Of a stretch of 52,156 nucleotides of DNA, positions 1 to 22,200 are shown in pieces. This stretch comes from Bacteroidales bacterium. GTDB lineage: Bacteria; Bacteroidota; Bacteroidia; Bacteroidales; NBLH01. The stretch is taken from NCBI GenBank assembly GCA_021647685.1, contig JAKIUH010000001.1:1-52156 (forward strand), read 5' to 3'. Under the pieces are notes generated by a model. It ran no database searches. It saw only the letters and a list, made by a program, of their open reading frames with translations, and had not been told where the DNA came from. The stretch's first letter is position 1; every line of letters begins with the position of its first letter. Position numbers and translations under genes: made by a program.

Positions 1-430
1 TGTCTGCTATTTTTTGAATTTTTTCGTTGTCGCAAGGGTTTCCGTAAACGTGAACAGGCAAAATTGCTGTTGTTTGCGGAGTGATAAGTGCTTCTATTTT
101 ATCGGGATTAAGATTTCCGTCTTCTTGACAAATATCGCAAAAAACAGGTTTTATTCCGTTCCAATGCAAAGAGTGTGTTGTTGCCACAAAACTGTATGGC
201 GTTGTAATTACTTCGCCTGTAATTCGGAGTGCCTGTAAGCCGACGATAAGTGCAAGTGTTCCGTTTGAAAAAAGCGAAATATATTCAACGCCAAGAAATT
301 CTGCGAGTTTTTGCTCTAATTCTTGATGAAATTTCCCGTTATTTGTCAGATGTTTGCTTTCCCAAAGTTCTTTTAACTTTTCAGTGAAGTCATCAAAATT
401 TGGAAGTGTCGGTTGGGTTACGTATATCAT
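1..430 (-). CDS. DegT/DnrJ/EryC1/StrS-family PLP-dependent sugar aminotransferase, N-terminal ~143 codons (gene runs off the left window edge)
   Basis: Missing from the ORF track because there is no stop inside the window. Hand translation of the minus strand from the ATG at 430-428 gives MIYVTQPTLPNFDDFTEKLKELWESKHLTNNGKFHQELEQKLAEFLGVEYISLFSNGTLALIVGLQALRITGEVITTPYSFVATTHSLHWNGIKPVFCDI..., a typical N-terminus for this family. The frame stays open to position 1. Confidence 0.8.
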   Translation of the reverse strand, partial: MIYVTQPTLPNFDDFTEKLKELWESKHLTNNGKFHQELEQKLAEFLGVEYISLFSNGTLALIVGLQALRITGEVITTPYSFVATTHSLHWNGIKPVFCDICQEDGNLNPDKIEALITPQTTAILPVHVYGNPCDNEKIQKIAD

Positions 431-435
431 TTGTT

Positions 436-1210
436 TCAAAAAATTTGATTTATATATTCTTTAAATAACAAAATTTGCTTTATATCAGACGGATTAAACA
501 GAAACGGTTGAACATCTTTACTTATTTCGGTTAGATTAAGTTTATTTATTTCTTGTAATACTCTGTTTTTTAAAGCAGTTTCATTATTTATTTTCAATTT
601 TTTGTTGTAAATAATCAAAATTCGGACGTGTTGATTTCATTAAAAAAATAATGTCGAAAAAATCTCGTCCTTTTTTTCGTTTTCGGTTAATAAGAGCATA
701 AAATTTTTGTGCCAACAAAATATCTTTCGGCGTTGTGTTTATCGAAGTAAATACATCAAATTTATTTAAAATTAATTTTTCAGGTTTGTATGTGAAATAT
801 TGTGGTTCGGTATCTAATTGAATTAATATTTTTTCTTCCTTGTGACCTGACAGCCCTTCGTTAAAAAGCAAGTTCGGAAATCTGACATAACAATGAAATG
901 CTCCTGCAAACACATTTTTGATGTCAATTTCGTATCCTTGTTTTGACAGTTGTTTTTCAATAATTACAGAAATGTCTTTAAAATCAGTTTCAGATAAGTC
1001 TAAATTATCAAAGTCTAAATCTTCTGAAAAGCGAGAGTTATTATGAACTATTCGCAAACAAGTCCCGCCAAGAAAACAAAGTTTATCTGCATATTCACTT
1101 TCAAAAATTATTTCAAGAATTTTATATTGCAGATATTCACGCAACATAAAATTTTTAAAAATGTGCAAATTTTCGGGATAATATTTTTTTATTTCATTCA
1201 GACTAATCAT
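436..1210 (-). pseudogene. abiEii: AbiEii/AbiGii-family nucleotidyltransferase toxin (DUF1814), split into two frames (584-1210 and 436-618)
   Basis: The 208-aa ORF (..CFLGGTCLRIVHNNSRFSEDLDFD.., RKRKKGRDFFDIIFL) looks like the AbiEii NTase core. The 60-aa ORF (..LTEISKDVQPFLFNPSDIKQILLFKEYI) looks like the family C-terminus in a different frame. The two frames meet at a 6-nt homopolymer (plus-strand T6, 598-603). The start overlaps the abiEi stop by 8 nt. Confidence 0.7.
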
Positions 1211-1817
1211 ACAGAAATTGATTTATTATTTTTACTTTTTTCAACAATATCTTTGAATTATACAAGGTTGCATAATCTGATAATTTTTGCATATTTAATT
1301 CTTTCAGTAATAATTCTTTGTTTAATCGCAAAGATATTATATCTTCAAAAGTTTTTAATGAATGCCGAAAATATAATAAATCTAACAATGCTTTTTCAAT
1401 TTCAGCAATTTTAAAGGTGTAATTTTCTTTTTGCACAAATTTATAAGCAAAAAAACAATTTGTTTTTATGTTTCTGTATGTATATAAATATTGACTATTT
1501 TTAAACTCTTTTGTTTTTAACGTTGTTACAGAATTTATTGAAAAAACTGCTTCCGGAATTACGCCGTAATAATATAATGCCGTTTCTAAACTTACGTAAG
1601 ACGGTTGGTAAATTTTATTTGCAATATAAAAAAGTCTTGTTTCGTCAATAATAGTATCTGAAAAACAATACCAAGAATTTCTAATTTTATGCAAGTATCC
1701 TTTTTTTTGCCAAGTCAGCAAATTCATTTTATTAAAATTCGGGTATAATTTATCTATTTCTTTTACAGAAAATACTATATACTTGTTAAACTGTTGTTTA
1801 AAGTTTAAAAATTGCAT
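1203..1817 (-). CDS. abiEi: AbiEi-family antitoxin / transcriptional regulator (type IV TA)
   Basis: 204-aa ORF. Its N-terminal part (..LLTWQKKGYLHKIRNSWYCF..) has a winged-helix-like AbiEi_4 pattern. It lies directly upstream of the NTase toxin gene and overlaps it, the canonical abiE operon layout. Confidence 0.7.
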   Translation of the reverse strand: MQFLNFKQQFNKYIVFSVKEIDKLYPNFNKMNLLTWQKKGYLHKIRNSWYCFSDTIIDETRLFYIANKIYQPSYVSLETALYYYGVIPEAVFSINSVTTLKTKEFKNSQYLYTYRNIKTNCFFAYKFVQKENYTFKIAEIEKALLDLLYFRHSLKTFEDIISLRLNKELLLKELNMQKLSDYATLYNSKILLKKVKIINQFLYD

Positions 1818-1836
1818 TTTTGTTTCTATTTATATG

Positions 1837-1844
1837 CAAATTTA
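1837..1844 (-). promoter_or_regulatory. Candidate Bacteroidota -7 promoter box (TAAATTTG on minus strand) for abiEi-abiEii
   Basis: Matches the TAnnTTTG consensus about 20 nt upstream of the abiEi ATG. Confidence 0.35.
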
Positions 1845-1904
1845 TATATTTTCAGAAATAAAACAAAAGGTTTAATATTTTTGTGAGCATTATTTATTTT
1901 AAAA

Positions 1905-1985
1905 ATGTGATTGTGTTTTTAAAATTCTTTTAATTTGTATGAATTTGTTAAAATTTTGTAAAGTTGGTTGGGTTATGTATATTGG
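1905..1985 (-). repeat. Decayed copy C of the aminotransferase 5' end / start-codon junction
   Basis: Hand alignment to 352-430 is roughly 70% identical, with a strong core (ttggttgggttatgtatat vs tcggttgggttacgtatat and aaaattcttttaat vs aaagttcttttaac). No start codon or intact reading frame remains. Confidence 0.6.
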
Positions 1986-2052
1986 TTTGTTCATATTTTT
2001 ATCTGATTTTTTCATAATAAAACAACAAATGTGCTGTTTAAATTTTTTATTT

Positions 2053-2298
2053 TAGGGTTTGCTGAAAAATGCTAAATATATTGTAATTCAACACTTTATA
2101 TTTGTATTTTTGTGATAAAGTGCAAGGTTTTTGAATGAAACATCTTGAAACCCATGTACTTATTTTGATAAAACTACTAAATTTTTGCCGCTCAGCTGCA
2201 CATCTCTTTTGTATTTTGTTCAATTTGAAGTATTTATATACATCTACATCTCACAAAATCCAAAATAGACGCACATCTGAGCTTTTCAGCAAGCCCTA
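2053..2298. repeat. Inverted-repeat-bounded 246-bp segment (candidate invertible promoter or MITE)
   Basis: Left arm tagggtttgctgaaaa (2053-2068). The right arm's reverse complement is tagggcttgctgaaaa (2283-2298), matching 15/16. A weaker match extends about 12 nt inward. Two overlapping TAnnTTTG boxes (TATATTTG 2097-2104, TATTTTTG 2105-2112) lie inside, on the plus strand. Confidence 0.55.
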
Positions 2299-2300
2299 TT

Positions 2301-3500
2301 TTACAGATTTTGTTTTTGAAGAAAATTTATTAAACTCAGATGTTTTATTCCGTTTTTATTATCAAATTGAACTTGGTCAAAACTAATAACATATTTATTG
2401 TAATTGTCGTTTATTTTTTCCAAATTTCCAAATTCTCTTTCAACAACTTTATTGTCTGTCAGCAAATAAGTTACTTGTATATAAATTTTATTATTATTTT
2501 TTTCTGCTATAAAATCTATTTCCAGGTTATTTATTTTTCCGATACTTACAGCATAGTCAATTGAAATTAAATGCGAATATACTACATTTTCCAGTATTTT
2601 ATTCATGTCTTGCGGCTTAAAACCTACAAGTGCATTCCGAATGCCTACGTCTGTGAAGTAAAATTTTTCGCCTATTTCCAAAAAACGTTTTCCTTGTAAA
2701 TCGTATCGTCGTATTTTATTTATAAAAAAAGCATTATTAATATAATTAAGATAATTAAGAACAACGGAATTTGAAATTTTAAGGTTCTGAGATTTAAGGA
2801 AGTCGGCAATTTTTTTTGCAGAAACGATACTTCCTGTATTATCTGCAAGAAATAACACAAGACGTTCGAGGAAATCAACATTTTTTAAATTGTATCTTGC
2901 AACTACATCTTTCAAAAGTATTGTTTGATAAATATTTTGCAGATATGTAAAAACAACTTCGTCATCGTTTAAGTCAAGATTTTTCAAATAAGGCATTCCG
3001 CCGAATTTAATATATAAATTAAGCGTTTTTTGATTTACAGATAGTTTGTGAAATTTACAAAATTCAGTAAAATTTAAAGGATTAATTTTAAACTGCACGT
3101 ATCTTCCCGAAAGTAACGTCGCAAGTTCTCCTGACAACAGCGATGAGTTACTGCCGGTTATATAAATATTGTAATTTTTAGAAAAGAAATGTCGAACTGC
3201 ATGCTCAAAGCCGTTAATTTCTTGTATTTCATCAATAAATAAGATATTTCCGGCAGATTTTGATTTTTTTTCTATATAGTTTACTAAATCATCGGCTGTG
3301 TTAATTGTTGAAAATTCAAACAATTCTAAATTAATATAAATAATATTAATGTCTGGTGTATGTTTTAAATAATCAGCTATCAACAGTTTAAGAAAAAAAC
3401 TTTTCCCAACCCTGCGTTGTCCTGTAATAACTTTAATAATTTCGTTATTTGCAAATTTAGAAATCTTGTTTAAATATTTATTGCGTTGTATTATTTTCAT
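2301..3500 (-). CDS. AAA-family ATPase with C-terminal DUF4143-type domain
   Basis: 399-aa ORF. Walker A is GQRRVGKS and Walker B-like is ILFIDEIQ. The C-terminal part (..LEIDFIAEKNNNKIYIQVTY..) resembles the restriction-endonuclease-like DUF4143 module common in Bacteroidota. Confidence 0.8.
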   Translation of the reverse strand: MKIIQRNKYLNKISKFANNEIIKVITGQRRVGKSFFLKLLIADYLKHTPDINIIYINLELFEFSTINTADDLVNYIEKKSKSAGNILFIDEIQEINGFEHAVRHFFSKNYNIYITGSNSSLLSGELATLLSGRYVQFKINPLNFTEFCKFHKLSVNQKTLNLYIKFGGMPYLKNLDLNDDEVVFTYLQNIYQTILLKDVVARYNLKNVDFLERLVLFLADNTGSIVSAKKIADFLKSQNLKISNSVVLNYLNYINNAFFINKIRRYDLQGKRFLEIGEKFYFTDVGIRNALVGFKPQDMNKILENVVYSHLISIDYAVSIGKINNLEIDFIAEKNNNKIYIQVTYLLTDNKVVEREFGNLEKINDNYNKYVISFDQVQFDNKNGIKHLSLINFLQKQNL

Positions 3501-3543
3501 ATATCAGCAAGTTACAAGGATATTAATAATTATTGCAATAATA

Positions 3544-3618
3544 CAAAAAAGATTTAAGTTTACTTACAGTTTTGCTAAAATAATCAAAAAGATTTAAGTT
3601 TACTTGCAATGTTTTGCT
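3544..3618. repeat. Two tandem direct repeats (~33 nt, period ~41 nt) upstream of the ATPase gene
   Basis: caaaaaagatttaagtttacttacagttttgct (3544-3576) and caaaaagatttaagtttacttgcaatgttttgct (3585-3618). They share a 20-nt identical core, aaaaagatttaagtttactt, and an identical ttttgct tail. Confidence 0.7.
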
Positions 3619-3629
3619 CCGGTTTCGGT

Positions 3630-3732
3630 GGAATTTACCCTTAATTGTTAAGTGTTTGCTTTCCCAGAGTTCTTTTAACTTTTCAGTGAAACTATTAAAA
3701 TCGGGGAGATTTGGTTGGGTTACGTATATTGT
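3630..3732 (-). pseudogene. Displaced copy B of the aminotransferase 5' end (first ~35 codons), start codon lost
   Basis: Ungapped hand alignment to 328-430 matches roughly four-fifths of ~103 positions. It translates as TIYVTQPNLPDFNSFTEKLKELWESKHLTIKGKFH, against MIYVTQPTLPNFDDFTEKLKELWESKHLTNNGKFH in the live gene. ACA replaces ATG, and the copy abuts the wzt stop codon (3733-3735). Confidence 0.75.
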
Positions 3733-4980
3733 TTATTTAAAATTTAAGATTTCAAATTTAGGATAATATATACCTTCATAATTTGCTGCAATTATTGCAA
3801 ATCGATCATCTTGCTCAATATCAAAAAGAGCAAAATGGTTTAGAAACATCATTTCAGGAACAATTCTGTCTTCAAATATTCCAACAGAAATAAAATATCT
3901 GCCGGGTATAAGTTTAAAATTATCAAGTTTGAATGTTATTTCATGTTTTCCTTTTGTGCCTTTTATAGAGTGCTTTTTATGGACAGAACTAATCACAAGA
4001 ACCCTTATATTTTGTTCATTATAAAAATGTAATGTAAAATCAATTTCACCAAGGTTTTGTTTTGTTTCAAATTTTAAGTTAAAAAAGATTTCTTCGAATG
4101 GGGTAAATACATTTTCTTTATATTTATTTTTTATATTAAAGCTGATAATTTTAATTTTATTATTTTCAATAGCTTCTTCTTTTTGATTTTCTGTAATTGT
4201 ATTATAAGTTTGAATACAACTTTCAACAGCTCCCTCAAAACTAATCATTCCCGATTTTAAAAGAATTCCTTTTTTACATAAATTTCTAATGCTTGTCATA
4301 TTATAACTAACAAAAAGCACAGTCCTCCCTCCTTGTGAAGAAACATCTTGCATTTTGCCGATTGCTTTTTTCTGAAATTCGGCATCGCCTACGGCAAGGA
4401 CTTCGTCAACTACTAAAATGTCGGGCTCTAAGTGTGCTGCTACTGCAAATGCAAGACGAACATACATTCCGCTGCTGTATCGCTTAACAGGCGTATCAAG
4501 GTATTTTGCCACTCCTGCAAAATCTACAATCTCATCAAGTTTCTTTTTTATTTCCCATTTTCGCATTCCGAGTATTGCTCCGTTAAGGAAAATATTTTCT
4601 CGTCCTGTAAGTTCGGGATGGAAACCTGTTCCTACTTCAAGTAAACTTGCAATTCTGCCTTTTACTTTTATTTGCCCGATACTGGGACCCGTAACCCGCG
4701 AAAGTAGTTTCAGTAAAGTGGATTTTCCTGCACCATTTTTACCGATAATGCCCAGCACTTCACCTTGTTTTACTTCCAAATTAATATCGCGCAAAGCCCA
4801 AACGTATTCACCTTCAACGGTATTTAATGCATTTGTAGAACCTATTTTCAGGGCAGGGTCTTCTTTGCCCCGCACACGATACCACCAACGTTGCAAATCG
4901 CCGCGCAGCGTTTGGCTGCCAACCGTACCCAAACGGTATTGCTTACCTATATTTTCAAGCTTGATTACTGTTTCAGACAC
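3733..4980 (-). CDS. wzt: Polysaccharide/O-antigen ABC exporter ATP-binding protein (Wzt/TagH type) with C-terminal extension
   Basis: GTG start. Walker A GKNGAGKST, signature YSSGM, Walker B ILVVDE. A TagH/Wzt-style N-terminus (LRGDLQRWWYRVRG..) is followed by about 160 extra C-terminal residues, consistent with a Wzt glycan-binding domain. Confidence 0.85.
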   Translation of the reverse strand: MSETVIKLENIGKQYRLGTVGSQTLRGDLQRWWYRVRGKEDPALKIGSTNALNTVEGEYVWALRDINLEVKQGEVLGIIGKNGAGKSTLLKLLSRVTGPSIGQIKVKGRIASLLEVGTGFHPELTGRENIFLNGAILGMRKWEIKKKLDEIVDFAGVAKYLDTPVKRYSSGMYVRLAFAVAAHLEPDILVVDEVLAVGDAEFQKKAIGKMQDVSSQGGRTVLFVSYNMTSIRNLCKKGILLKSGMISFEGAVESCIQTYNTITENQKEEAIENNKIKIISFNIKNKYKENVFTPFEEIFFNLKFETKQNLGEIDFTLHFYNEQNIRVLVISSVHKKHSIKGTKGKHEITFKLDNFKLIPGRYFISVGIFEDRIVPEMMFLNHFALFDIEQDDRFAIIAANYEGIYYPKFEILNFK

Positions 4981-5123
4981 CTCTTTTTGTTATTGCATTA
5001 CAAACGTAATAATTTAAGATTTATTTAAAGGACTTTATAAAAAGTATTCATTTTTTTTTATACAAAAATACAACATTTATCAGTTTAAGGATATCTTAAA
5101 ATAAAAATCCACAAAAGAATTAA

Positions 5124-5131
5124 TATATTTG
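5124..5131 (+). promoter_or_regulatory. Candidate -7 box TATATTTG for wzm
   Basis: TAnnTTTG match 19 nt upstream of the wzm ATG. A second match, TAATTTTG, lies at 5138-5145. Confidence 0.3.
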
Positions 5132-5149
5132 TCACAATAATTTTGATTT

Positions 5150-6019
5150 ATGAACAAAGAAGAAAAATTAGGAAACAGCACCGAAAACTGGTCAATGATT
5201 ATTCGTCCCAAAAGGCACTTGTTCGATGTTAATTTACAAGAAATTTGGTCTTATCGCGATTTAATCAAACTATTTGTTCGCAGAGATTTTGTAGCACGCT
5301 ATAAGCAAACAATTTTAGGTCCTTTGTGGTTTCTCATTCAGCCATTGTTTACAACGGTTATGTACACGATTGTTTTTGGAAATATAGCCAAAATATCTAC
5401 AGATGGATTACCCCAAATTTTGTTTTATATGTCGGGAATTGTTGGCTGGACTTATTTTTCTGCATGTCTTAATTCTACCTCCAATACTTTTGTTGCCAAT
5501 GCAGGAATTTTCGGGAAAGTATATTTCCCGCGCTTAACATTACCTATTTCAATAGTAATATCAAACCTTATTCAATTTACCATACAATTTTTTCTTCTTT
5601 TGGCATTTATGCTGTATTATCGAATAATCGGTGCTAACTTTCATACCAATATATATGTTCTTCTTTTACCGCTTTTAATTGTACTGATGGCCGGTTTAGG
5701 TTTGGGATTTGGCATTATGATATCCTCATTAACAACAAAATACAGAGATTTGACAAATCTGGTAAGTTTTGGAGTTCAGTTATGGATGTATGCTACGCCC
5801 ATAATCTATCCGCTATCCGAAATACCTGAAAAATACCGGCTGTTTGTATTGGCTAATCCGCTTACACCGATTATTGAAACTTTTCGTTTTGCACTACTCG
5901 GTGCAGGAACTGTTAATTGGATGCATCTGACTTATAGTTTTATATTTACGATTATCGTTCTGGCAATAGGTATTGTGTTATTCAATAAAGTAGAACAAAC
6001 TTTTATGGATACAGTTTAA
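5150..6019 (+). CDS. wzm: ABC-2 type polysaccharide export permease (Wzm/TagG type)
   Basis: 289 aa with 6 hydrophobic segments. The N-terminal motif (..LIKLFVRRDFVARYKQTILGPLWFLIQPL..) is characteristic of ABC-2 permeases. Confidence 0.8.
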   Translation: MNKEEKLGNSTENWSMIIRPKRHLFDVNLQEIWSYRDLIKLFVRRDFVARYKQTILGPLWFLIQPLFTTVMYTIVFGNIAKISTDGLPQILFYMSGIVGWTYFSACLNSTSNTFVANAGIFGKVYFPRLTLPISIVISNLIQFTIQFFLLLAFMLYYRIIGANFHTNIYVLLLPLLIVLMAGLGLGFGIMISSLTTKYRDLTNLVSFGVQLWMYATPIIYPLSEIPEKYRLFVLANPLTPIIETFRFALLGAGTVNWMHLTYSFIFTIIVLAIGIVLFNKVEQTFMDTV

Positions 6020-6187
6020 ATTTTACTTTACTGGAAATTACATGACATCTATCATTTTATTTAATGAATTATAAGCTATATTTGCATTGCTATTTTTATT
6101 TAATCTAAATTAACATAGAAAGTAAAAAATTTAAGCTTAGATATAATTTTAACGAATAAACATAAAATCTATATAAGAATAACCAAA

Positions 6188-7111
6188 ATGAAAAACGAAG
6201 AAACTACAAAAATATTAGCCGATGCAGTTCGTGCTCTTTCTGATTTCTCCTCTGAAACAATGGTATATGCACCAAAACACGGACGCAGTATGCCTTCAAT
6301 AGATGCTTTACACGAAATTAGTGAAAACCTTAGGAGTATTATTTTTCCGGGATATTTTGGAAAATCAAGAATTACCGCACAAAATTTACCTTATTATATA
6401 GGTGTGAATATTGATCGTACCTTTCATTTACTCTCCGAACAAATTGCACGCGGAATTTGTTTTGCACAATTAGAAAGCGAAAATGCAAATTGTGAGTTGA
6501 ATGAAATTACCGCACAAAAAATCACAGCACAGTTTTTTAAACATTTGCCTACAATCAGAGAACTCCTGATTTCTGATGTAAAATCAACCTATAACGGCGA
6601 CCCTGCTGCAAATTCATACGGTGCGATTATTTATAGTTATCCGGGCTTAAAAGCCACAACTAATTACCGTATAGCTAATGCACTATTACGATTAAATGTA
6701 CCGCTCATTCCACGTATTTTAACTGAAATGGCTCACTCTGAAACAGGTATTGACATAAATCCCGGCGCAGAAATCGGACATTCCTTTACAATGGATCACG
6801 GAACCGGTATTGTGATTGGTGAAACTTGTATTATTGGTAACAATGTTAAACTATATCAAGGAGTTACTCTTGGAGCCAAAAGTTTTCCTTGCGATAAAAA
6901 CGGAAATCCGATAAAAGGTATTCCTCGCCACCCGATTGTTGAAAATAATGTGGTAATATATGCACAAGCTACAATACTTGGAAGAATTACCATAGGTAAA
7001 AATTCAGTTATTGGTGGAAATGTTTGGGTTACTAAAAATGTTGCTCCCGATTCAAAAATATTGCAATCTGCTGTTAGGGACATGAGTTTTGAGAATGGTG
7101 CAGGAATTTAA
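6188..7111 (+). CDS. Serine O-acetyltransferase-like hexapeptide-repeat acetyltransferase (long EpsC/CysE type)
   Basis: Hexapeptide left-handed beta-helix region: GIDINPGAEIGHSFTMDHGTGIVIGETCIIGNNVKLYQGVTLGA. Confidence 0.7.
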   Translation: MKNEETTKILADAVRALSDFSSETMVYAPKHGRSMPSIDALHEISENLRSIIFPGYFGKSRITAQNLPYYIGVNIDRTFHLLSEQIARGICFAQLESENANCELNEITAQKITAQFFKHLPTIRELLISDVKSTYNGDPAANSYGAIIYSYPGLKATTNYRIANALLRLNVPLIPRILTEMAHSETGIDINPGAEIGHSFTMDHGTGIVIGETCIIGNNVKLYQGVTLGAKSFPCDKNGNPIKGIPRHPIVENNVVIYAQATILGRITIGKNSVIGGNVWVTKNVAPDSKILQSAVRDMSFENGAGI

Positions 7112-7126
7112 TCTAAAAAATAAATT

Positions 7127-8239
7127 ATGAAAATATTTATATTTTTACTTCTATTTTCCACAATTTTAACGGCATGCAATACAGCCGATAATAATAACCG
7201 TAAAGATGAATATGCTGTAATTGCTTATTACCACTCGGCAGATACCCTAATTGACGAAACAGGTATTCAGGCTCAAAAACTTACTCACATAAATTATGCA
7301 TTTGCTAATATTCTAGATGGAAAAATTACAGAAGGCTCAAAATATGATTCGCTAAATTTTATAAAATTAAATACTTTAAAAACAAAAAATCCGGACTTAA
7401 AAATCTTAATTTCAGTTGGCGGCTGGGCTTGGTCGGGTAATTTTTCCGATATGGCTTTAACAGATAGCAGCCGTAGCATTTTCATTAAAAGCTGTATCAA
7501 ATTCATCAACAAATACCGGCTTGATGGAATTGATTTAGACTGGGAATATCCGGCATTACCGGGAAACAATAACAAACACCGACCCGAAGATAAAACAAAT
7601 TTTACGGCATTGCTAAAAGAATTAAGACAAGCTTTGGACAATAATACTGAAAAAAACAAGAAAAAGTATTTACTGACAATAGCAGCCGGCGCATTTCCTG
7701 ATTATGTAGCAAATGTTGAACTAAAAAAAATAATTCAATACCTTGATTTTATTAATTTAATGACCTATGATTTTACCGGTGGCTGGAATAAAGAAACAGC
7801 CCACCACACAAATTTGTATATACAAGATACAATTAATGATAAAATTTCTGTAAAGAAAGCTGTAGATTCTTATTTACTAAATGATGTACCTACAAACAAA
7901 ATAGTAATAGGTGCAGCTTTTTATGGTCGTGGGTGGACAGGGGTAAATCCCGATAACAATGGCTTATATCAACCTGCTAAAAGCGGTTTAGAGTTCTCTT
8001 ACAAAGATTTGGTTGAAAACTATATTAATAAAAACAACTATATTTCATATTTTGATACCACTGCACAAGCTCCCTATTTGTGGAATCTAATTGACAGTGT
8101 ATTTATAACTTATGAAAATCCGCAATCTATAAAAGCAAAATGCGATTATGTTAAAGAAAATCAACTTTTAGGAATTATGTTTTGGCAATATACCGGTGAT
8201 TATAAAAATGAATTATTAAATGCAATATCTTTAAATTAA
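7127..8239 (+). CDS. Glycoside hydrolase family 18 (chitinase-like) lipoprotein
   Basis: GH18 catalytic motif DGIDLDWEYP. Lipoprotein signal MKIFIFLLLFSTILTAC. The MFWQY motif lies near the C-terminus. Confidence 0.8.
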   Translation: MKIFIFLLLFSTILTACNTADNNNRKDEYAVIAYYHSADTLIDETGIQAQKLTHINYAFANILDGKITEGSKYDSLNFIKLNTLKTKNPDLKILISVGGWAWSGNFSDMALTDSSRSIFIKSCIKFINKYRLDGIDLDWEYPALPGNNNKHRPEDKTNFTALLKELRQALDNNTEKNKKKYLLTIAAGAFPDYVANVELKKIIQYLDFINLMTYDFTGGWNKETAHHTNLYIQDTINDKISVKKAVDSYLLNDVPTNKIVIGAAFYGRGWTGVNPDNNGLYQPAKSGLEFSYKDLVENYINKNNYISYFDTTAQAPYLWNLIDSVFITYENPQSIKAKCDYVKENQLLGIMFWQYTGDYKNELLNAISLN

Positions 8240-8329
8240 ATTGAACGATTACATTTTTATCAGAGCAATATCAAAGATAGTAAGCAGATTTAAAAATTGA
8301 AATTTCCGTCATTAATTTAACAGACACAT

Positions 8330-8406
8330 TTAATATTCAACACTCAATACTAAACAATTATTTTTTATGCGTAATTATTATTTATTGAGTGTTGCTTATT
8401 GAATAT
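8330..8406. other. Imperfect hairpin (12 bp + 6 bp stem, ~33-nt loop) in the long GH18/fiber intergenic region
   Basis: aatattcaacactcaata pairs with tattgagtgttg(ctta)ttgaatatt. No T-run follows. Confidence 0.4.
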
Positions 8407-8585
8407 TTGTTCTTGCCCTTTCATGAAGATAGTTGGTAGATTATTCTCCTTATAATAAATTAGGTTATTATTACAATTAAGTCTTTTCTTCTTTATCCGG
8501 CTCGTTATTTACATCTACAAGCTGTACTTATCATAACTTGCGAATGCTAAATTAATAGTTTGCAGATTTAAGCGATTACTTCAAC

Positions 8586-8614
8586 TTATCAAGTAATTAT
8601 CAATACCTTATCAA
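8586..8614 (+). promoter_or_regulatory. Three TTATCAA direct repeats phased at exactly 11 bp
   Basis: TTATCAA occurs at 8586, 8597 and 8608. Related TAATCAA motifs occur at about 8629 and 8759. The array sits about 180 nt upstream of the fiber gene. Confidence 0.3.
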
Positions 8615-8791
8615 TTAGATTAGATATTTAATCAATAAAGACACCTTTGATGTTTAGATAATCCTTAATTTGCATCAAAAAAGAACAGAGAACAGCTAAA
8701 ACCTAAACCTAAATAATTGATTATTAAATAATTTATCATAATTAAAAAAGCAGCAAACTAATCAATCTATTAATTTAAAGAAAGTTAAGTT

Positions 8792-10651
8792 ATGAGAACA
8801 ACAAAGAGTTTTTTAATGTTTATTTTTATTTTTGTTTTTGCGGCAAATATTTTTGCACAAAAAGAAAAATCAACAAAGTCAGATCCAAACGTTCCAATTT
8901 TTGAAATTAAAAACGATTTAGGTCAAACAGTTTTTGCAGTCTATCCGGGCGGAGTAAAAATTTTTGTAGATAGTAAATTAAAAGCAGCCGGCGGCGGTTT
9001 TACCGTTGGAAGTTTAAGTACCGGTAAAGCGGCAGGCGGTGATATTTTATCTGTTAGTCCCGGAAATGTTAATATCTATATTGACACTTCATCAACTTTA
9101 AAAGCAGCCGGTGGCGGTTTTACTGTTGGAAGTTTAAGCACTGGTAAAAAAGCATTGGGCATTGCAGAGAACTATCTTACTGTGAGTCCTGATAGTACCA
9201 GAGTATATATTGATGAAAAAAGTACAGCTGGCTTTGCTGTTGGTAGGATTGGTACAACAGTTGGGATTCAAAACTTTATGCACTTAAAAAAAGATAATTA
9301 TTTCATCGGGCAAAAAAGTGGCGAAAAAACAACAGGTTTGTACAATCTTTTTTTAGGCTATGAAAGTGGATTTTCTAATACAAATGGAACAAGTAATACT
9401 TTTTTAGGATTTCAGACCGGTTACTCAAATACTTCCGGTAGCCGAAATATTTTTATAGGAGATAATTGCGGCTATTCAAATACATCAGGTAACTTTAATA
9501 CATTTGTAGGAACCAATGCCGGAGTTAAGAATACCACGGGTAGTTTCAGTACTTTTTTAGGTTATCAAGCAGGACGAGAAGTGCAAACCATTGGTTATAA
9601 CACTTGTATCGGATACAATAGTGGTGCAGGAGGTGCAAGCGGTAATAACCGTGCATTTTTAGGATACAGTTCAGGAGCAAGCAGCACAGGTGATGATAAT
9701 ACCTATTTAGGAGCCGAAGCCGGGTATTATAGTGCTGCCGGTGCAGGCAATGTTTATATTGGTACAGGTGCCGGTAGAGTAGGAACAGGAGATAATAACA
9801 TATTTATTGGAAAGTTTTCAGGATATAGTGCTCCCGGCTCAAATAATATTTTAATAGGACCCGGTGCAGGGTGGAGTCTGCAAAGGTCTAATATATTAAT
9901 TATTGATAATTCATCTGATACAATTAATCCTCTTATTATAGGCGATTTTGTTAACCAAAAATTAAGGTTTGGTGCTGATGTTAGTGTTGCTCAAAATTTA
10001 GGAATAAATAGGGAAGCATATACAAATGCATCATTAGGTGTTGATGGGGCCAATAATGGTTGGGGTGTATATTCTACAAAAGGAACTTCAACCGGCTATA
10101 ACTTTTTTGAAGGTAATCTTGCTATTGGAACAACAAGCAATGTGAGTTCTTATGAGCTTTCTGTTGAAGGAGATGGATATTTTTCTGGTAATCTCAATGT
10201 TACGGGTAATGTTAATGCTGCAAACTTTCCTGCACCATCGGATATTCGCTTCAAAAAAAACATCATAACAATCAATGGTGCTTTAAATAAAATACTTAGT
10301 ATCAGAGGAGTTTATTACGATTGGAAAGTTGATGAATTCAAAAACAGAGGCTTTACAAAAGACAAGCAAATTGGAGTTATTGCCCAAGAAGTAGAAAAAG
10401 TTTTACCGGAATTGGTTAAAACTGATGATGACGGATATAAAGCAGTTACTTATGATAAACTTACCGCTGTATTAATCGAAGCCGTAAAAGAACAACAAAA
10501 GCAAATTGAAGCCTTAAAATTAGAAAATCAGAAACTTACTCAAAAAACATCTGAGATTGATGAATTAAGAGCGGAACTTACCGAGCTCAAAAAATTAGTT
10601 CGTGACATTGCCGGACAGAATTTACAGGATAAAACAGAATCGGCTCAATAA
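8792..10651 (+). CDS. Secreted fiber-like protein: conserved N-module, beta-roll type repeats, peptidase-S74 intramolecular chaperone (tail-fiber) domain, C-terminal coiled coil
   Basis: Signal peptide present. The LKAAGGGFTVGSLSTGK motif is duplicated. There are many ~14-residue repeats (G-x-x-[AS]-G-x-x-N-T-x-G-x-x-N-x-F-[ILV]). The C-terminal region SDIRFKKNI...GVYYDWK...IGVIAQEVEKVLPELV...YDKLTAVLIEAVKEQQKQIE matches the endosialidase-chaperone type domain. Confidence 0.75.
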   Translation: MRTTKSFLMFIFIFVFAANIFAQKEKSTKSDPNVPIFEIKNDLGQTVFAVYPGGVKIFVDSKLKAAGGGFTVGSLSTGKAAGGDILSVSPGNVNIYIDTSSTLKAAGGGFTVGSLSTGKKALGIAENYLTVSPDSTRVYIDEKSTAGFAVGRIGTTVGIQNFMHLKKDNYFIGQKSGEKTTGLYNLFLGYESGFSNTNGTSNTFLGFQTGYSNTSGSRNIFIGDNCGYSNTSGNFNTFVGTNAGVKNTTGSFSTFLGYQAGREVQTIGYNTCIGYNSGAGGASGNNRAFLGYSSGASSTGDDNTYLGAEAGYYSAAGAGNVYIGTGAGRVGTGDNNIFIGKFSGYSAPGSNNILIGPGAGWSLQRSNILIIDNSSDTINPLIIGDFVNQKLRFGADVSVAQNLGINREAYTNASLGVDGANNGWGVYSTKGTSTGYNFFEGNLAIGTTSNVSSYELSVEGDGYFSGNLNVTGNVNAANFPAPSDIRFKKNIITINGALNKILSIRGVYYDWKVDEFKNRGFTKDKQIGVIAQEVEKVLPELVKTDDDGYKAVTYDKLTAVLIEAVKEQQKQIEALKLENQKLTQKTSEIDELRAELTELKKLVRDIAGQNLQDKTESAQ

Positions 10652-10678
10652 ATTTTATAATAACAAACTTTTATTATC

Positions 10679-11752
10679 ATGATAAAGCGATTATTCAAAT
10701 ACAGTTTATTATTGCAGGGCATACTTTTTTTATGTCCTACAATAAATGCTCAGCAAGTTATTGTTTCGGATGCTGCCGAATTTAATCTTGCCGTAGCAGG
10801 AACAGTGGATATTAATGCAGATTTGATTAATAATTCACCTAATGCGCTGCTCTTAGGAACATTTGCCTTTTCAGGAAATACCGAACATGAAATTGGTGGT
10901 ACGGCACCTATTGAATTTAACAATCTTTCAATTAATAATTCGGCAGGAATTCGTTTGTCCACCGATATTATGGTAACAGGAAATCTTGATTTAATTGCCG
11001 GTACCGTTAATTTATTAAACAGTAATGTTACTATTGGAAGTAATGCAAGCCTTTCCGGTAGTTTTTCGCCAAATGTAATGCTTATTGCTGATGGTTCAGG
11101 ACAACTTAAAAGAGAAATTGCCGGCTCGGGAACCTACTTATTTCCTGTTGGCGATACTTCTAATCTTACAGATTACTCTCCGGTTAGCCTAACCTTTAGC
11201 TCAGGAACATTTACCAATGCAGTAGTGGGGGTGAATTTAAAAAATGAAAAACATCCGGAAAACACAAGTGTTAATGATTATTTAAATAAATATTGGACCC
11301 TTAGCGGAAGCGGACTCTCCGATTTTTCTTGTACCGCAACTTTTACTTATAGTAATGAAGACATAGTTGGCTCAGAATCAAATCTTTGGGGAGCAAAATG
11401 GGACGGTAACCAATGGACTGTCCTCAATCAGGCTGCTATGAATACATTTAGCGGTACTATTAATAGTTTTTCAGACTTTACGGCTGGTGAAAAAAAAGTC
11501 CTATCTGTTGAAGATGAACTTTTGCCGGATGATGTAAAAATTACAGTTGAAGGAAACAATATTATTATACGCTCAGATGCTGTTAAATTAGAAAGGGCAG
11601 AGATTTATAATTTATCAGGACAATTAATTTATAGTAAAGATTTATCACAGAATACGGTCAATGAATTAAATTTCAATGCCCGCCCTAATTATTATATTGT
11701 TAAAGTATATTCCGACAAACAAACAATTAGTAAAAAAATCTTTAAAAACTAA
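10679..11752 (+). CDS. Secreted hypothetical protein with T9SS C-terminal sorting domain
   Basis: Signal peptide ..CPTINAQ. The C-terminal ~80 aa (..AEIYNLSGQLIYSKDL...YYIVKVYSDKQTISKKIFKN) fits the Por_Secre_tail pattern. Confidence 0.7.
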   Translation: MIKRLFKYSLLLQGILFLCPTINAQQVIVSDAAEFNLAVAGTVDINADLINNSPNALLLGTFAFSGNTEHEIGGTAPIEFNNLSINNSAGIRLSTDIMVTGNLDLIAGTVNLLNSNVTIGSNASLSGSFSPNVMLIADGSGQLKREIAGSGTYLFPVGDTSNLTDYSPVSLTFSSGTFTNAVVGVNLKNEKHPENTSVNDYLNKYWTLSGSGLSDFSCTATFTYSNEDIVGSESNLWGAKWDGNQWTVLNQAAMNTFSGTINSFSDFTAGEKKVLSVEDELLPDDVKITVEGNNIIIRSDAVKLERAEIYNLSGQLIYSKDLSQNTVNELNFNARPNYYIVKVYSDKQTISKKIFKN

Positions 11753-11756
11753 TGTC

Positions 11757-13589
11757 ATGAAAGCAACACTACACTTTATTTTTGTGCTTCTTTTTTTAAG
11801 TAGCACATTCATTGCTTATTCGCAGAATAAGGAAGACGCAGAAAGTTTAAAATCCGATCCCAACACGCCAATTTTTGAAATTAAGAATGATGCGGGACAA
11901 ACCGTATTTGCAGTTTATCCGGGAGGTGTAAAAATTTTTATTGATAGCAAATTAAAAGCTGCCGGCGGAGGTTTTACCGTGGGTAGTCTCAGCACCGGAA
12001 AAGCAGTAGGTGGTGATATTTTTTCGGTTAGTCCGGGAAATGTAAATGTTTATATTGATAATACTTTAAAAGCTGCAGGTGGAGGATTTACTGTTGGCTC
12101 ACTCAGCACCGGAAAAGCTGCCGGCGATACCATTAATTTTTTGGAAGTAACTCCGGATAGCACCAGAGTTTACATAAATGAGAATAGTAATGCAGGATTT
12201 GCGGTAGGTAAGCTGGGTGCTACCATCGGCAGGCAAAATTTTATGTATCTAAGAAAAGATAATTATTTTATTGGACATAATATTGGAAGTAAAACTACTG
12301 GTATTCGTAATGTTTTAATTGGATATGAAGCCGGTTCTAATAATACAATATGCTCTGATAATATTTTCTTAGGCTACCAAACCGGATATTTTAATACATA
12401 TGGCGAAAACAATATTTTTATTGGAACTAGAGCAGGGTACAATAATTCATCACAAGCAGAGAGCAACAACTTTGAAGCAGACAATAATGTTTTTATCGGT
12501 AATTTAAGTGGATATAATAATGTATTGGGTTTCCAAAATGTTGCTATTGGGGCTGAAAGTGGATATAATAACAATACCAATTATAATGTATATATTGGAT
12601 ACCAAGCCGGTAGAGCAAATGTTTCAGGAATTCAACAGGTTTTTATCGGAGAAACAGCCGGTCTTAAAACAACAGGCAGAATGAATACTTTTATAGGAAG
12701 TAGTGCTGGAAAAAATACTGTTTCAGGCACTGATAATTGCTTTATGGGAACATTAACAGGATGGGCTAGCAGAGAAAACAGCAGTCAAAATACTTTAATT
12801 GGCTCTCAATCAGATTGGAGAAATGGTACCACAGGAAATTACAATACTTTTTTAGGCTTTAAAGCAGGTGCGACTGACAACTGGAGTTCTAATGAAAATA
12901 TTGGTCAATACAATGTTTTATTAGGATATAAAGCAGGTGCCCGCAATGGAAATGACCTTGGAAATAATAATATTTTAATAGGTTATAATGCGGGGTATAA
13001 TATAACAGGAAGTAATAAATTATACATAAACTCAGGTAGTGGTATCCCACTAATCTATGGCGAGTTTGATAATAAACGTATAGCCATTAATACAACAAAT
13101 ACAAACAGTTACACTTTTTATGTAAACGGCTCTGCCGGAGGAACAGGTAATTGGAATGCCAGTAGTGATCGAAGATTAAAAACAAATATTACGTCTATTC
13201 CCGACCCTTTAAATAAAGTAAAAGCTCTTAATGGTGTTAATTTTTATTGGAAAGATAAAAAAACAAGAGGAAATAAAGCTCAAATTGGATTTATTGCTCA
13301 GGATGTAGAAAAAATACTTCCCGAAGTTGTAAACAAAAACGGAAAATACTACTCCATGCAATATGCGCCTATTACAGCACTACTTGTTGAAGCCATAAAA
13401 GAACAGCAAAAACAAATTGAAAAGCTTACAAATAAACTGGCTGAACTTGAAAACCAAAATAAAGACTTAAAAGTCCAAGTTTCTGACATACAAGATTTAA
13501 AATCAGAGGTAGAGGTTTTAAAAAATATGCTCAAACAAATACTGCCGGAAAACGAACAATTAAAGAACAAAGCAGAAACTGCGAGGTAG
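11757..13589 (+). CDS. Paralog of the 8792-10651 fiber-like protein (S74 chaperone domain, coiled coil)
   Basis: I place the start at ATG 11757 (MKATLHFIFVLLFLSSTFIAYSQ signal peptide). The tracked 11676 start overlaps the upstream gene. The N-module is nearly identical at protein level to the paralog. C-terminal region: SDRRLKTNI...GVNFYWK...IGFIAQDVEKILPEVV...LLVEAIKEQQKQIE. Confidence 0.75.
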   Translation: MKATLHFIFVLLFLSSTFIAYSQNKEDAESLKSDPNTPIFEIKNDAGQTVFAVYPGGVKIFIDSKLKAAGGGFTVGSLSTGKAVGGDIFSVSPGNVNVYIDNTLKAAGGGFTVGSLSTGKAAGDTINFLEVTPDSTRVYINENSNAGFAVGKLGATIGRQNFMYLRKDNYFIGHNIGSKTTGIRNVLIGYEAGSNNTICSDNIFLGYQTGYFNTYGENNIFIGTRAGYNNSSQAESNNFEADNNVFIGNLSGYNNVLGFQNVAIGAESGYNNNTNYNVYIGYQAGRANVSGIQQVFIGETAGLKTTGRMNTFIGSSAGKNTVSGTDNCFMGTLTGWASRENSSQNTLIGSQSDWRNGTTGNYNTFLGFKAGATDNWSSNENIGQYNVLLGYKAGARNGNDLGNNNILIGYNAGYNITGSNKLYINSGSGIPLIYGEFDNKRIAINTTNTNSYTFYVNGSAGGTGNWNASSDRRLKTNITSIPDPLNKVKALNGVNFYWKDKKTRGNKAQIGFIAQDVEKILPEVVNKNGKYYSMQYAPITALLVEAIKEQQKQIEKLTNKLAELENQNKDLKVQVSDIQDLKSEVEVLKNMLKQILPENEQLKNKAETAR

Positions 13590-19236: not shown

Positions 19237-22200
19237 ATGGAAAAAAGAAAAATAAATATATATGAGTCGGTAATGAAGCATCCGCAAATAGCCTTTTTGC
19301 TGACAAGTATTTTACTGATTTTTGGTGTGTATGCACTTATTAAGATGCCGCGACAAGAATTTCCTGAATTTACCATTCGTCAAGGACTGGTTATCGGAAT
19401 TTATCCCGGTGCAAGTGCGGCGGAAGTAGAAGACCAATTGACCCGTAAAGTTGAAAATTTTATTTTTGGATACGAAGAGGTAAATAAAGCCAAAACCTAT
19501 TCGATATCAAAAGAAGGGGTAATGATTATGTTCGTTGAACTGAACGATAAAATTAAAGACTCGGATAAGTTTTGGTCAAAATTAAAACACGGATTAAACG
19601 AGTTAAAACCAACACTTCCGGCTGGTGTATTAATGCTTAAAGGCGATAATGACTTTGGAAACACTTCGGCAGTATTGATTTCTTTATCGGCAAAAGACAA
19701 AACATATAAAGACCTGAAAAATGCTTTAGACGATTTGGAAGCCGATATTCGTAAAATCGAATCGGTTTCTAAAATTAAGCATTACGGCATTCAGCATGAA
19801 GAATATGCAGTACACGTACAACAAGAAAAATTAAACCAATACAATATCAAGTCTTTAAGTTTGTTTACCGCTTTCCGCTCTGACGGAATGGTTAATTATG
19901 CCGGCGATTTGGATAATGGCGAACTGATTTTGCCGGTACATCTGCCTCCGCGCTTTGAAAATATCGATGATTTAAAACAACAAATTATCTATGCCGATCC
20001 GCACGGTGATATTATCCGTTTAAAAGATGTAGCTCAAATTGAACGTAAGTATAAAGATTTTGACCGCTATATAAAATACAACAGAGATAAAGCAGTGGTT
20101 TTATCTTTAGAAATGCAAAACGGTAATAATATCGTGGATTTTGGAAAAGAAGTAGATAAAGTATTGGATAAATTTTCAGCAAAACATCCTGATATTACCA
20201 TAAGCAAAATTTCAAATGCTCCACAAGTAGTGGACAAAGCAATCAGTCATTTTTTGCAAGAATTTGCCATTGCCATTATAGCGGTAATTATAGTGATTAT
20301 GCTACTTTTACCTTTTAGAGTTGCCGGTGTAGCTGCTGTAACTATTCCTATTTCCGTGTTAATGACCTTATCGGGATTATATCTTTGGGGAGTTGAGCTG
20401 CATACTGTTTCCTTAGCTGCATTGATTGTAACATTGGGGATGATTGTTGATAATTCCATAGTGATTATTGACAATCATATTGAAAAACTCGATGAAGGAG
20501 AAACAGCTTGGAATGCTGCTTGGAAAAGTGTTTCAGAATTGTTTTTACCTGTTTTTGTAGCCACTTTGGCAATTTTTTCCGCTTATTTTCCCACAGCACT
20601 CTATATGCACGGCACCGTAGGTGACTTTACCGAAACATTTCCTGTTGCAATAGGAATGGCATTGTTTGCTTCCTTGCTGGTTGCAGGTTTTTTGGTTCCC
20701 GTCATCTCCTATACTTTTATTAAAAAAGGTTTAAAAACAAAAAAATCAAAAGAAACTAAATTTAATTTGTTAGATGTATTGCAAAATTTCTTTAATAAAA
20801 GTTTAGATAAAGCTTTTCACAAACAAAGCTTAACAATATGGGTGGGTATTTTATCAATTGTTTTAGGCATTTATTTCTTTACACAAGTAAAACAACAGCT
20901 TTTCCCAAAAGTAGAACGCAATCAGTTTGCCGTAGAAATATATTTACCCGAAGGATATACCTTAGACAATACGGCATCGGTGATGGATTCTTTGGAAACG
21001 GCTCTTTTGCAAGATAAGCGTGTAGTGAATGTAACAAGTTTTGTAGGAACAAGTTCTCCGCGTTTTCATACGGTTTATGCCCCTAATATTCCGGCAAAAA
21101 ACTACGGACAAATGATTGTAAATACCATTTCGGACGAAGCAACTATTGAAGTTTTAGATGAATTTAACAGGCGATACAAAGATGCTTTCCCCGAGGCACA
21201 TATAAAATGGAAACAATTAGATATGCAATCTACACCGCCCATTGAAATACGCATCTCAGGCGATGATATTGAAAAACTAAAAACCGTTGCTTATCAGGTA
21301 GAAGATATCTTAGAAAATACCGAAGGTACCGAATGGGTACGAAACGATTGGAAAGAAAAACGTCAAACAATTTCTGTAAAAATGGATAAAGATAAAGCCA
21401 ACCGCTTGGGTTTTAACAAAAGTATTGTCTCTACAAGTTTGGCTATTTATCTGAAAGGATTGCCCTTAACCACCGTTTGGGAAGGCGATTACCCGGTAGA
21501 TGTAGTACTTACCGGCGAAAAAGATGAAAAAAACAGCATCGAGGATTTAAAAAATATGTATATTACCTCTCCCGCCACATTTTCAGCAATCCCTTTACGC
21601 GCCATAGCGCAATTATATCCCGAGTGGCAAGAAGGGCAGATTGTTCGCCGTAACGGAGTACGTACCGTAAGTGTAATTGCCGATGTGGGAAGAACAGTAA
21701 TTGCAAACGATGTATTAAACAAAGCAAGACCCTTAATTAATAAAATTAATTTACCTAAAGGTGTAAGCCTTACTTATGGTGGCGAATATGAACACTCCAT
21801 TGAAAATTATATCCCTATGGGATATGCCCTCTTGACAAGTATTGTATTGATATTTTTAATTTTAGTATTTCAATTTAAAGAAATAAAGAAAGCAATTTTA
21901 ATAATGCTTACCATGCCTTTGAGCTTGTTAGGTGCATCTTTGGGTCTTTACCTTACAGGATATCCTTTTGGAATAACTGCTTTTCTTGGAGTAATAAGTT
22001 TAGCAGGTATTGTGGTGCGTAACGGTATTATTTTAATCGATTACGCCATCCAATTATCAGAAAAAGAAGGCTTATCGGTAAGCGAAGCTGCAAAAGCAGC
22101 AGGAAAAAGGCGTATGCGTCCTATTTTTTTAACATCGGCTGCTGCTGCCGTGGGAGTCATTCCTATGATTATCAGTGGTTCGCCACTTTGGGGTCCTTTG

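Follow-up and report, generated by a model that had tools for sequence, protein, structure and literature searches.

In the stretch of Bacteroidales DNA analysed here (the window, 52,156 nucleotides in length), a segment of about a quarter of a kilobase lies between an abiE cassette and an ATPase gene, is bounded by short inverted repeats and carries promoter-like boxes that point in one direction. The question is whether such a segment is a switch that belongs to this locus or a copy of something that moves. Bacteroidales invertons, promoters that invertases turn around and that PhaseFinder-type read mapping can detect, likewise have short inverted repeats around a few hundred base pairs with a one-directional −7-like box. 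The inverted repeats of invertons are locus-specific recombination sites, whereas the unit in the window turns out to be a dispersed transposon with target-site duplications.

Anatomy of the segment and its surroundings

Re-reading of the sequence bears out the inverted repeat from which an earlier note on this DNA started. Positions 2053–2068 of the window read TAGGGTTTGCTGAAAA and the reverse complement of 2283–2298 reads TAGGGCTTGCTGAAAA; these two 16-nt arms match at 15 of 16 positions and are separated by 214 nt, and the whole unit measures 246 bp (2053–2298, core 2055–2296). A repeat search stretches the arm pairing to 29 nt at 76% (2040–2068 with 2283–2311). The right arm does lie 2 nt from the stop codon of the ATPase gene (stop at 2301–2303), again as the earlier note had it. 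Around the GGGC..GCCC core there is an exact 7-bp direct repeat, TATTTTA, with a left copy at 2048–2054 and a right copy at 2297–2303. In the left copy, the final TA doubles as the start of the terminal repeat as it is written here; the right copy includes the stop codon of the ATPase gene (2301–2303, read as TAA on the minus strand).

Inside the left terminal inverted repeat (2053–2068, plus strand; family consensus TAGGGCTTGCTGAAAA) comes a less conserved, non-coding left interior (2069–2189, plus strand), where most substitutions among copies of the element fall. It contains two overlapping TAnnTTTG −7-like boxes, TATATTTG and TATTTTTG (2097–2112, plus strand), which were found by a motif scan and point to the right end. 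A 93-nt imperfect hairpin, GCUCAG...CUGAGC on the minus strand (2190–2282), is defined by the fold and by pairing across copies, and is followed by the right terminal inverted repeat on the minus strand (2283–2298). Pfam scans of the 58-aa and 83-aa ORFs inside the segment gave no match, and Rfam, searched at permissive E-values over positions 1–6000 of the window, has no family matching the segment. No reading frame is common to the subfamilies described below; the stop-free frames differ between them in strand and in length, and therefore the element encodes nothing.

The neighbouring genes lie outside the element and serve as context only. To the right, an AAA_14/DUF4143 ATPase gene occupies 2301–3500 on the minus strand (PF13173, 3.6e-32; PF13635, 1.8e-17). 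To the left, a two-gene cassette on the minus strand (584–1817) consists of an AbiEii toxin gene (584–1210; PF08843, 2.7e-19) and, upstream of it, a gene for a 204-aa protein (1203–1817) without a Pfam match, the product of which is presumed to be the AbiEi partner. The start of this cassette is 235 nt from the left end of the segment.

Dispersed copies and subfamilies

The earlier note had proposed a comparison of the unit with the full genome, and this comparison uncovers dozens of dispersed copies. BLAST searches with the unit and with the family consensus against the window's own MAG (G000; 515 contigs, 4.24 Mb, 32.7% G+C) returned 44 full-length copies, together with about 25 that are partial, cut by a contig end or internally deleted. 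A second MAG, GCA_024277895.1 (“Bacteroidetes bacterium Dive96_bin10.164”, here G310), holds at least 40 copies of the subfamily to which the window copy belongs, 91–96% identical to the window copy. The boundaries are the same as those of the window's inverted repeat in every copy, with TAGGGCTTGCTGAAAA at the start and its complement at the end, and the terminal repeats are near-perfect in the family consensus. Since one genome has at least 44 and the other at least 40 units with precisely the same ends, the inverted repeat is far beyond chance. Most copies are 246–247 bp long, and a subgroup of 255–257 bp in G000 has a 10-bp insert. All but one of 42 full copies in G000 overlap no long ORF, that is, 41 are intergenic, and across the family the right half is far better conserved than the left.

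No copy in G000 diverges further from the consensus than the window copy, with 82.6% identity as against 87–96% for the others. In G310, copies are 94–99% identical to the consensus of that genome, and the window copy is 97.2% identical to the same consensus. From its divergence in the one genome and its closeness to the consensus of the other, it follows that the family has at least two subfamilies, each specific to a species, with about 82% identity between them and dozens of copies per genome. Many copies in both MAGs sit at contig ends, and because of this the family can be seen to help break up these assemblies.

Target-site duplications and the promoter-like box

Duplications were scored outside the GGGC..GCCC core, as exact 6- or 7-bp direct repeats of the form TANN(N)TA. 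By this measure they accompany 27 of 47 copies in G000 and 17 of 29 in G310. Most of the G000 copies without an exact duplication are one base off; still, the absence of an exact duplication from about 40% of copies counts against a MITE. Whether the TA is taken as part of the element, which gives a duplication of 2–3 bp, or as part of the target, which gives one of 6–7 bp, the same empty site is predicted. Neither the filled junction nor the empty site so predicted turned up in scans of metagenomes, and in the single other assembly of the locus, that of G310, the site is filled and identical; a further point against a MITE is that, with no empty site found, it is only the duplications that speak for mobility. 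The right copy of the duplication in the window contains the stop codon of the AAA_14/DUF4143 ATPase gene, so the element landed on that stop codon and its duplication restored it.

These duplications bear on the reading that the earlier note had favoured, an inverton in which a recombinase encoded elsewhere flips the 214-bp interior and so turns a putative promoter towards abiEi–abiEii. The geometry agrees with it, given the short inverted repeats, the 214-bp interior and the presence of TAnnTTTG on one strand only: our motif scan places the boxes where they had been reported, at 2097 and 2105 in the plus direction, and finds none on the minus strand of the segment. The same repeats, however, bound dozens of copies in two genomes, and an invertase would also recombine between these copies, while the target-site duplications point to transposition. 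In the G000 subfamily the box occurs at family position 45 in 25 of 42 copies, and in the G310 subfamily at position 53 in 16 of 29 copies and at position 45 in 3 of 29; a box on the minus strand is found in 9 of 42 G000 copies and in neither the G310 subfamily nor the window copy. Since it is present across many copies of both subfamilies, the −7-like box is a family trait of the left, IRL-like part and is not peculiar to this locus; it may be what remains of the promoter of the parent's transposase.

The box, moreover, comes without a −33 TTTG, which is absent 17–23 nt upstream of the box in 42 of 42 G000 copies and at both boxes in the window, and the box itself is missing from about 40–45% of copies, both of which argue against an inverton. 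Scans for sigma-70 promoters and intrinsic terminators stayed at the background of shuffled sequence. Of those larger ORFs in the first 7 kb that went into the scan, none matches a recombinase family, and the G310 assembly of the locus has the segment in the same orientation and 100% identical, in a comparison of two assemblies that may not be independent. Because the inverted repeats are dispersed transposon ends, present in dozens of copies with target-site duplications, and not a locus-specific recombination site, an inverton is very improbable here. The preference of the earlier note is thus reversed: its inverton finds no support, and the MITE that it had given as the alternative gains from the dispersed copies, from the TANN(N)TA duplications counted above and from termini that are common to IS5-family ISs. 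This removes a false lead, since control of the abiE and ATPase cassettes by a phase-variable promoter is very unlikely.

Shared ends with IS5-family elements

More than 119 stretches of a collection of species-representative genomes contain the exact 16-mer TAGGGCTTGCTGAAAA; Cyanobacteria and Bacteroidota stand out among the matches, which extend to Ignavibacteria, Spirochaetes and others. A partner repeat lies 196–310 bp away at 18 of the 16-mer loci that were fetched, 11 of which have an exact TANN(N)TA duplication. These MITE-like pairs of 196–310 bp come from Cyanobacteria (Okeania, Calothrix, Trichodesmium, Nostocales) and Bacteroidota (loci L024–L103), and the letter-for-letter conservation of transposon ends across phyla is a notable observation in its own right.

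A link to a transposase comes from a cyanobacterial locus (L064), where a 478-aa ORF with the Pfam domains DUF772 and DDE_Tnp_1_2 lies inside the repeat, adjoining an exact 16-mer; the Pfam scan covered this one related transposase. With the L064 protein as query, a search of 300 genomes of the window's order recovered full elements of 1.62–1.81 kb (L143, L144, L145, L148, L149, L151 and L154). Each has terminal repeats of the type TAGGG[CT][TC]TGCTGA[AGT]AA and one transposase of 470–560 aa. For two of the transposases the scores on the NCBIfam IS5-family model NF033578, 342 and 427 bits, exceed its cut-off of 275. An exact TA-NNN-TA duplication is seen in two of the five ISs for which both flanks can be read (L143 and L154). 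At its transposase-proximal end, the L149 element has exactly bases 1–18 of the MITE consensus, and GCTCAG, subterminal at the right end of the MITE, resembles AAGTCAG at the transposase-distal ends of the L144, L149 and L154 ISs. By comparison with these sequences, the left terminal repeat (2053–2068) would be an IRL-like end and the right one (2283–2298) an IRR-like end.

Only the 13–18 terminal bases are clearly common to the MITE and the ISs. When the interior of the MITE is aligned with the 5′ regions of the ISs, homology is marginal: the best alignment has a z of 3.1, and 3 of 500 shuffles did as well. This weighs against descent from an IS5-family parent, as does the finding that an intact parent IS is in neither MAG. 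In G000 there is no pair of terminal repeats more than 300 bp apart, that is, no parent IS, and no transposase is reached from a solo end at C477:25879; G310 has no match to NF033578. The sole tblastn match in G000, at C60:16058–17760, is a decayed IS5-family IS of about 1.7 kb. This element was rejected as the parent of the MITE, being degenerate and having a different terminal repeat, TAGGGTCTGCCTRAAAA. Its transposase frame holds an in-frame TAG, and a histidine-kinase-like gene is apparently interrupted by it.

The same ends also occur around other sequences. In a genome of the same genus (G007), elements of 288–437 bp (L020–L022) have the same terminal repeats and similar subterminal bases (AAAAGTCAGAGGTGCAT, AAAACGCCTAAGCC), with interiors unrelated to that of the window MITE, and the same ends have therefore captured different cargo. 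In the window itself, a lone match to the terminal repeat at 21580–21595 (TTTTCAGCAATCCCTT), with two mismatches and without a partner, is probably due to chance.

Identity of the element and comparison with known MITEs

The segment has the features by which MITEs are known, namely a length of 246 bp in a class that spans about 50–1000 bp, the lack of coding capacity, terminal inverted repeats, duplications and many dispersed copies, and autonomous elements with the same terminal repeats are found in other genomes of the same order and in neither MAG. We conclude with high confidence that positions 2053–2298 of the window are a copy of a non-autonomous MITE with IS5-family-type ends, as opposed to a locus-specific invertible promoter switch. 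The terminal repeat TAGGGCTTGCTGAAAA and the target TANN(N)TA now define the MITE family.

How such an element would spread can be proposed from these features. The non-coding element would be moved in trans by an IS5-family DDE transposase of the NF033578 type, with DUF772 and DDE_Tnp_1_2 domains, which would recognise the 16-bp terminal repeats TAGGGCTTGCTGAAAA and some subterminal bases. Insertion would take place at AT-rich TANN(N)TA sites, where a staggered cut of the target would duplicate 6–7 bp or, if the TA is counted in the element instead, only the central 2–3 bp. The expected parent would be 1.6–1.8 kb long, with TAGGGCTTGCTGAAAA ends and subterminal GCTCAGATGTGC.

A literature search for the terminal repeat returned unrelated primer matches only and no relevant context. 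The closest parallels in kind are MITE239, MITE464/PgRS and BrickBuilt of Porphyromonas gingivalis, which are Bacteroidota MITEs derived from the IS5 family (PMC4596501). Like the window element they are small, non-coding, intergenic and multicopy, with termini that match IS5-family ISs, and some copies have promoter-like activity (PMC4596501). Their termini, GAGACC... or ACGTCA..., are unrelated to the TAGGGCTTGCTGAAAA of the window element (PMC4596501), which, unlike them, has no internal tandem repeats, and the duplication is a regular TANN(N)TA in the window family whereas it is variable in the P. gingivalis elements. The window element is thus an IS5-family-type MITE of the same kind as the P. 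gingivalis MITEs, with unrelated terminal repeats. The NF033578 ISs (L143, L144, L149, L151 and L154; 1.6–1.8 kb) share with it 13–18 terminal bases and the TA-NNN-TA duplication. They differ in being autonomous, with a transposase of 470–560 aa, in the absence of a long hairpin at the transposase-distal end and in an interior with marginal homology to that of the MITE.

In Cyanobacteria, described MITEs include Nezha, an Anabaena MITE of about 224 bp and the MaeMITEs (PMC3184786). The cyanobacterial element pairs of 196–280 bp found here have exactly the same 16-mer and the same TANN(N)TA duplication as the window family.

The right-half hairpin

The 93-nt hairpin at 2190–2282 lies directly inside the right terminal repeat and is the best conserved part of the family. 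The element as a whole folds far better than shuffled sequence, with z values of −5.9 to −6.9, as would be expected of a structured non-coding RNA with a gene of its own, or of a REP-like host repeat that needs no transposase to spread. However, no Rfam family matches it, no full promoter is conserved, the left half evolves freely, and the dispersal is explained by the terminal repeats, the duplications and the identical ends on IS5-family elements. We consider an RNA gene or REP-like repeat of this sort extremely unlikely, and return to the hairpin as part of a MITE.

Pairing in the hairpin was tested on 67 distinct right halves from both subfamilies, with 35 pairs defined on the minus strand. 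Canonical pairs make up 98% of cells on the minus strand and, for the same set of pairs, 87% on the plus strand, a difference that is favoured by the definition of the pairs on the minus strand. There are 278 G.U cells and 16 A.C cells, counts that are not independent events given that MITE copies share ancestry. When variant types are counted instead, G.U exceeds A.C by 26 to 11 (p 0.02), and by 16 to 3 among types found in at least two copies (p 0.004), while the split among singletons is even, at 10 to 8. A double AU<->GC change distinguishes the two subfamilies at one hairpin pair.

The surroundings of the copies have a polarity of their own. The right end faces the stop codon of a gene in 23 of 26 G310 copies and 25 of 40 G000 copies, and the left end does so in 19 of 29 and 20 of 39, respectively; the contrast between the two ends is weak (Fisher's test on pooled counts, p about 0.07, a rough estimate). 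The window copy follows the pattern, with the ATPase stop codon 2 nt from its right end. This orientation fits a role for the right half as a 3′-UTR hairpin, or at least tolerance of it as one.

From the strand preference and the conservation we infer, tentatively, that this hairpin may function on the minus strand as a fold of single-stranded nucleic acid, probably RNA. One form that this could take is co-option of the MITE, with the minus-strand hairpin in the 3′ UTR of the upstream gene, here that of the ATPase, serving as a terminator, an insulator or an mRNA stabiliser. Such roles have been proposed for the hairpins of Correia, ERIC and REP elements. Co-option would add to the MITE explanation and is compatible with MITE identity, and it would account for pairing that is kept far better on the minus than on the plus strand, for the excess of G.U-type over A.C-type variants, for the right ends placed at gene stops and for the superior conservation of the right half. 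Against it, the hairpin is followed by no U-tract on the minus strand and the terminator scan finds nothing there, the right-versus-left difference in orientation is weak, the definition of the pairs biases the test towards the minus strand and the shared ancestry of copies keeps the cell counts from being independent. UGUG-type sequence and the four ACATCT motifs (AGATGT on the minus strand), which lie in the same direction in the hairpin region (window 2199–2277), could moreover yield G.U pairs without any role in RNA, for instance through transposase binding; the four motifs could be subterminal transposase-binding repeats. On this balance co-option is possible but doubtful. Put more broadly, the hairpin may be selected as a single-stranded fold of minus polarity, either as a 3′-UTR module for the gene that reads into the right end or as a fold needed for the spread of the element, a suggestion that we make only tentatively and think rather unlikely. 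The ISs in hand have no comparable hairpin at their transposase-distal ends.

If true, either role of the hairpin would make the element a MITE with structured, functional cargo, carried between terminal repeats that are letter-for-letter the same from Bacteroidota to Cyanobacteria. The strand-biased hairpin and the orientation bias together make a small and testable case for asking whether selection acts on the interiors of MITEs as RNA or as single-strand folds. Correia elements (NEMIS) of Neisseria and ERIC elements of enterobacteria are gene-adjacent MITEs that are co-transcribed, with long hairpins that can affect the fate of mRNA, and Correia elements insert at TA (reviewed in part in PMC3184786). 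The window element has no sequence relationship to either, and the role at the RNA level that is demonstrated for them is, for it, only putative.

Origin of the left 4.7 kb of the window

A look-up with the ATPase and the 204-aa protein led to the same locus in GCA_024277895.1, with a MITE and flanking sequence that match the window at 100% identity and in the same orientation. Positions 1–4678 of the window are identical but for one base to contig C176 of that genome (JAJRUH010000018.1), and identity drops to about 70% at 4679, inside the N-terminal part of wzt. Neither the rest of this contig nor 29 other G310 loci have a match in G000, and window positions 5000–13000 match G310 only at wzm, at 72%. 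As a further observation, the segment is inverted relative to wzm when compared with G310, which places wzt and wzm head to head. Because positions 1–4678 are near-identical and nothing else was found to be shared at high identity, two origins come into question for the left 4.7 kb: an artefact, in the form of a chimeric contig or mis-bin, or a transfer that happened very recently, with its crossover in wzt. Under either origin the MITE copy came along with this DNA. It was the subfamily of this MITE copy that exposed the left 4.7 kb as identical to the genome of another organism, and species-specific subfamilies of this kind are useful for repeat masking, for explaining contig breaks in MAGs and for spotting foreign or mis-binned DNA.

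The 5′ end of a DegT aminotransferase gene occurs three times in the window (309–451, 1925–1998 and 3612–3752), as one live start and two relics at 78% and 74% identity. The relics flank the abiE cassette and the cassette formed by the MITE and the ATPase gene, and this triplication around both cassettes suggests that insertion or recombination took place serially, immediately upstream of the aminotransferase gene.
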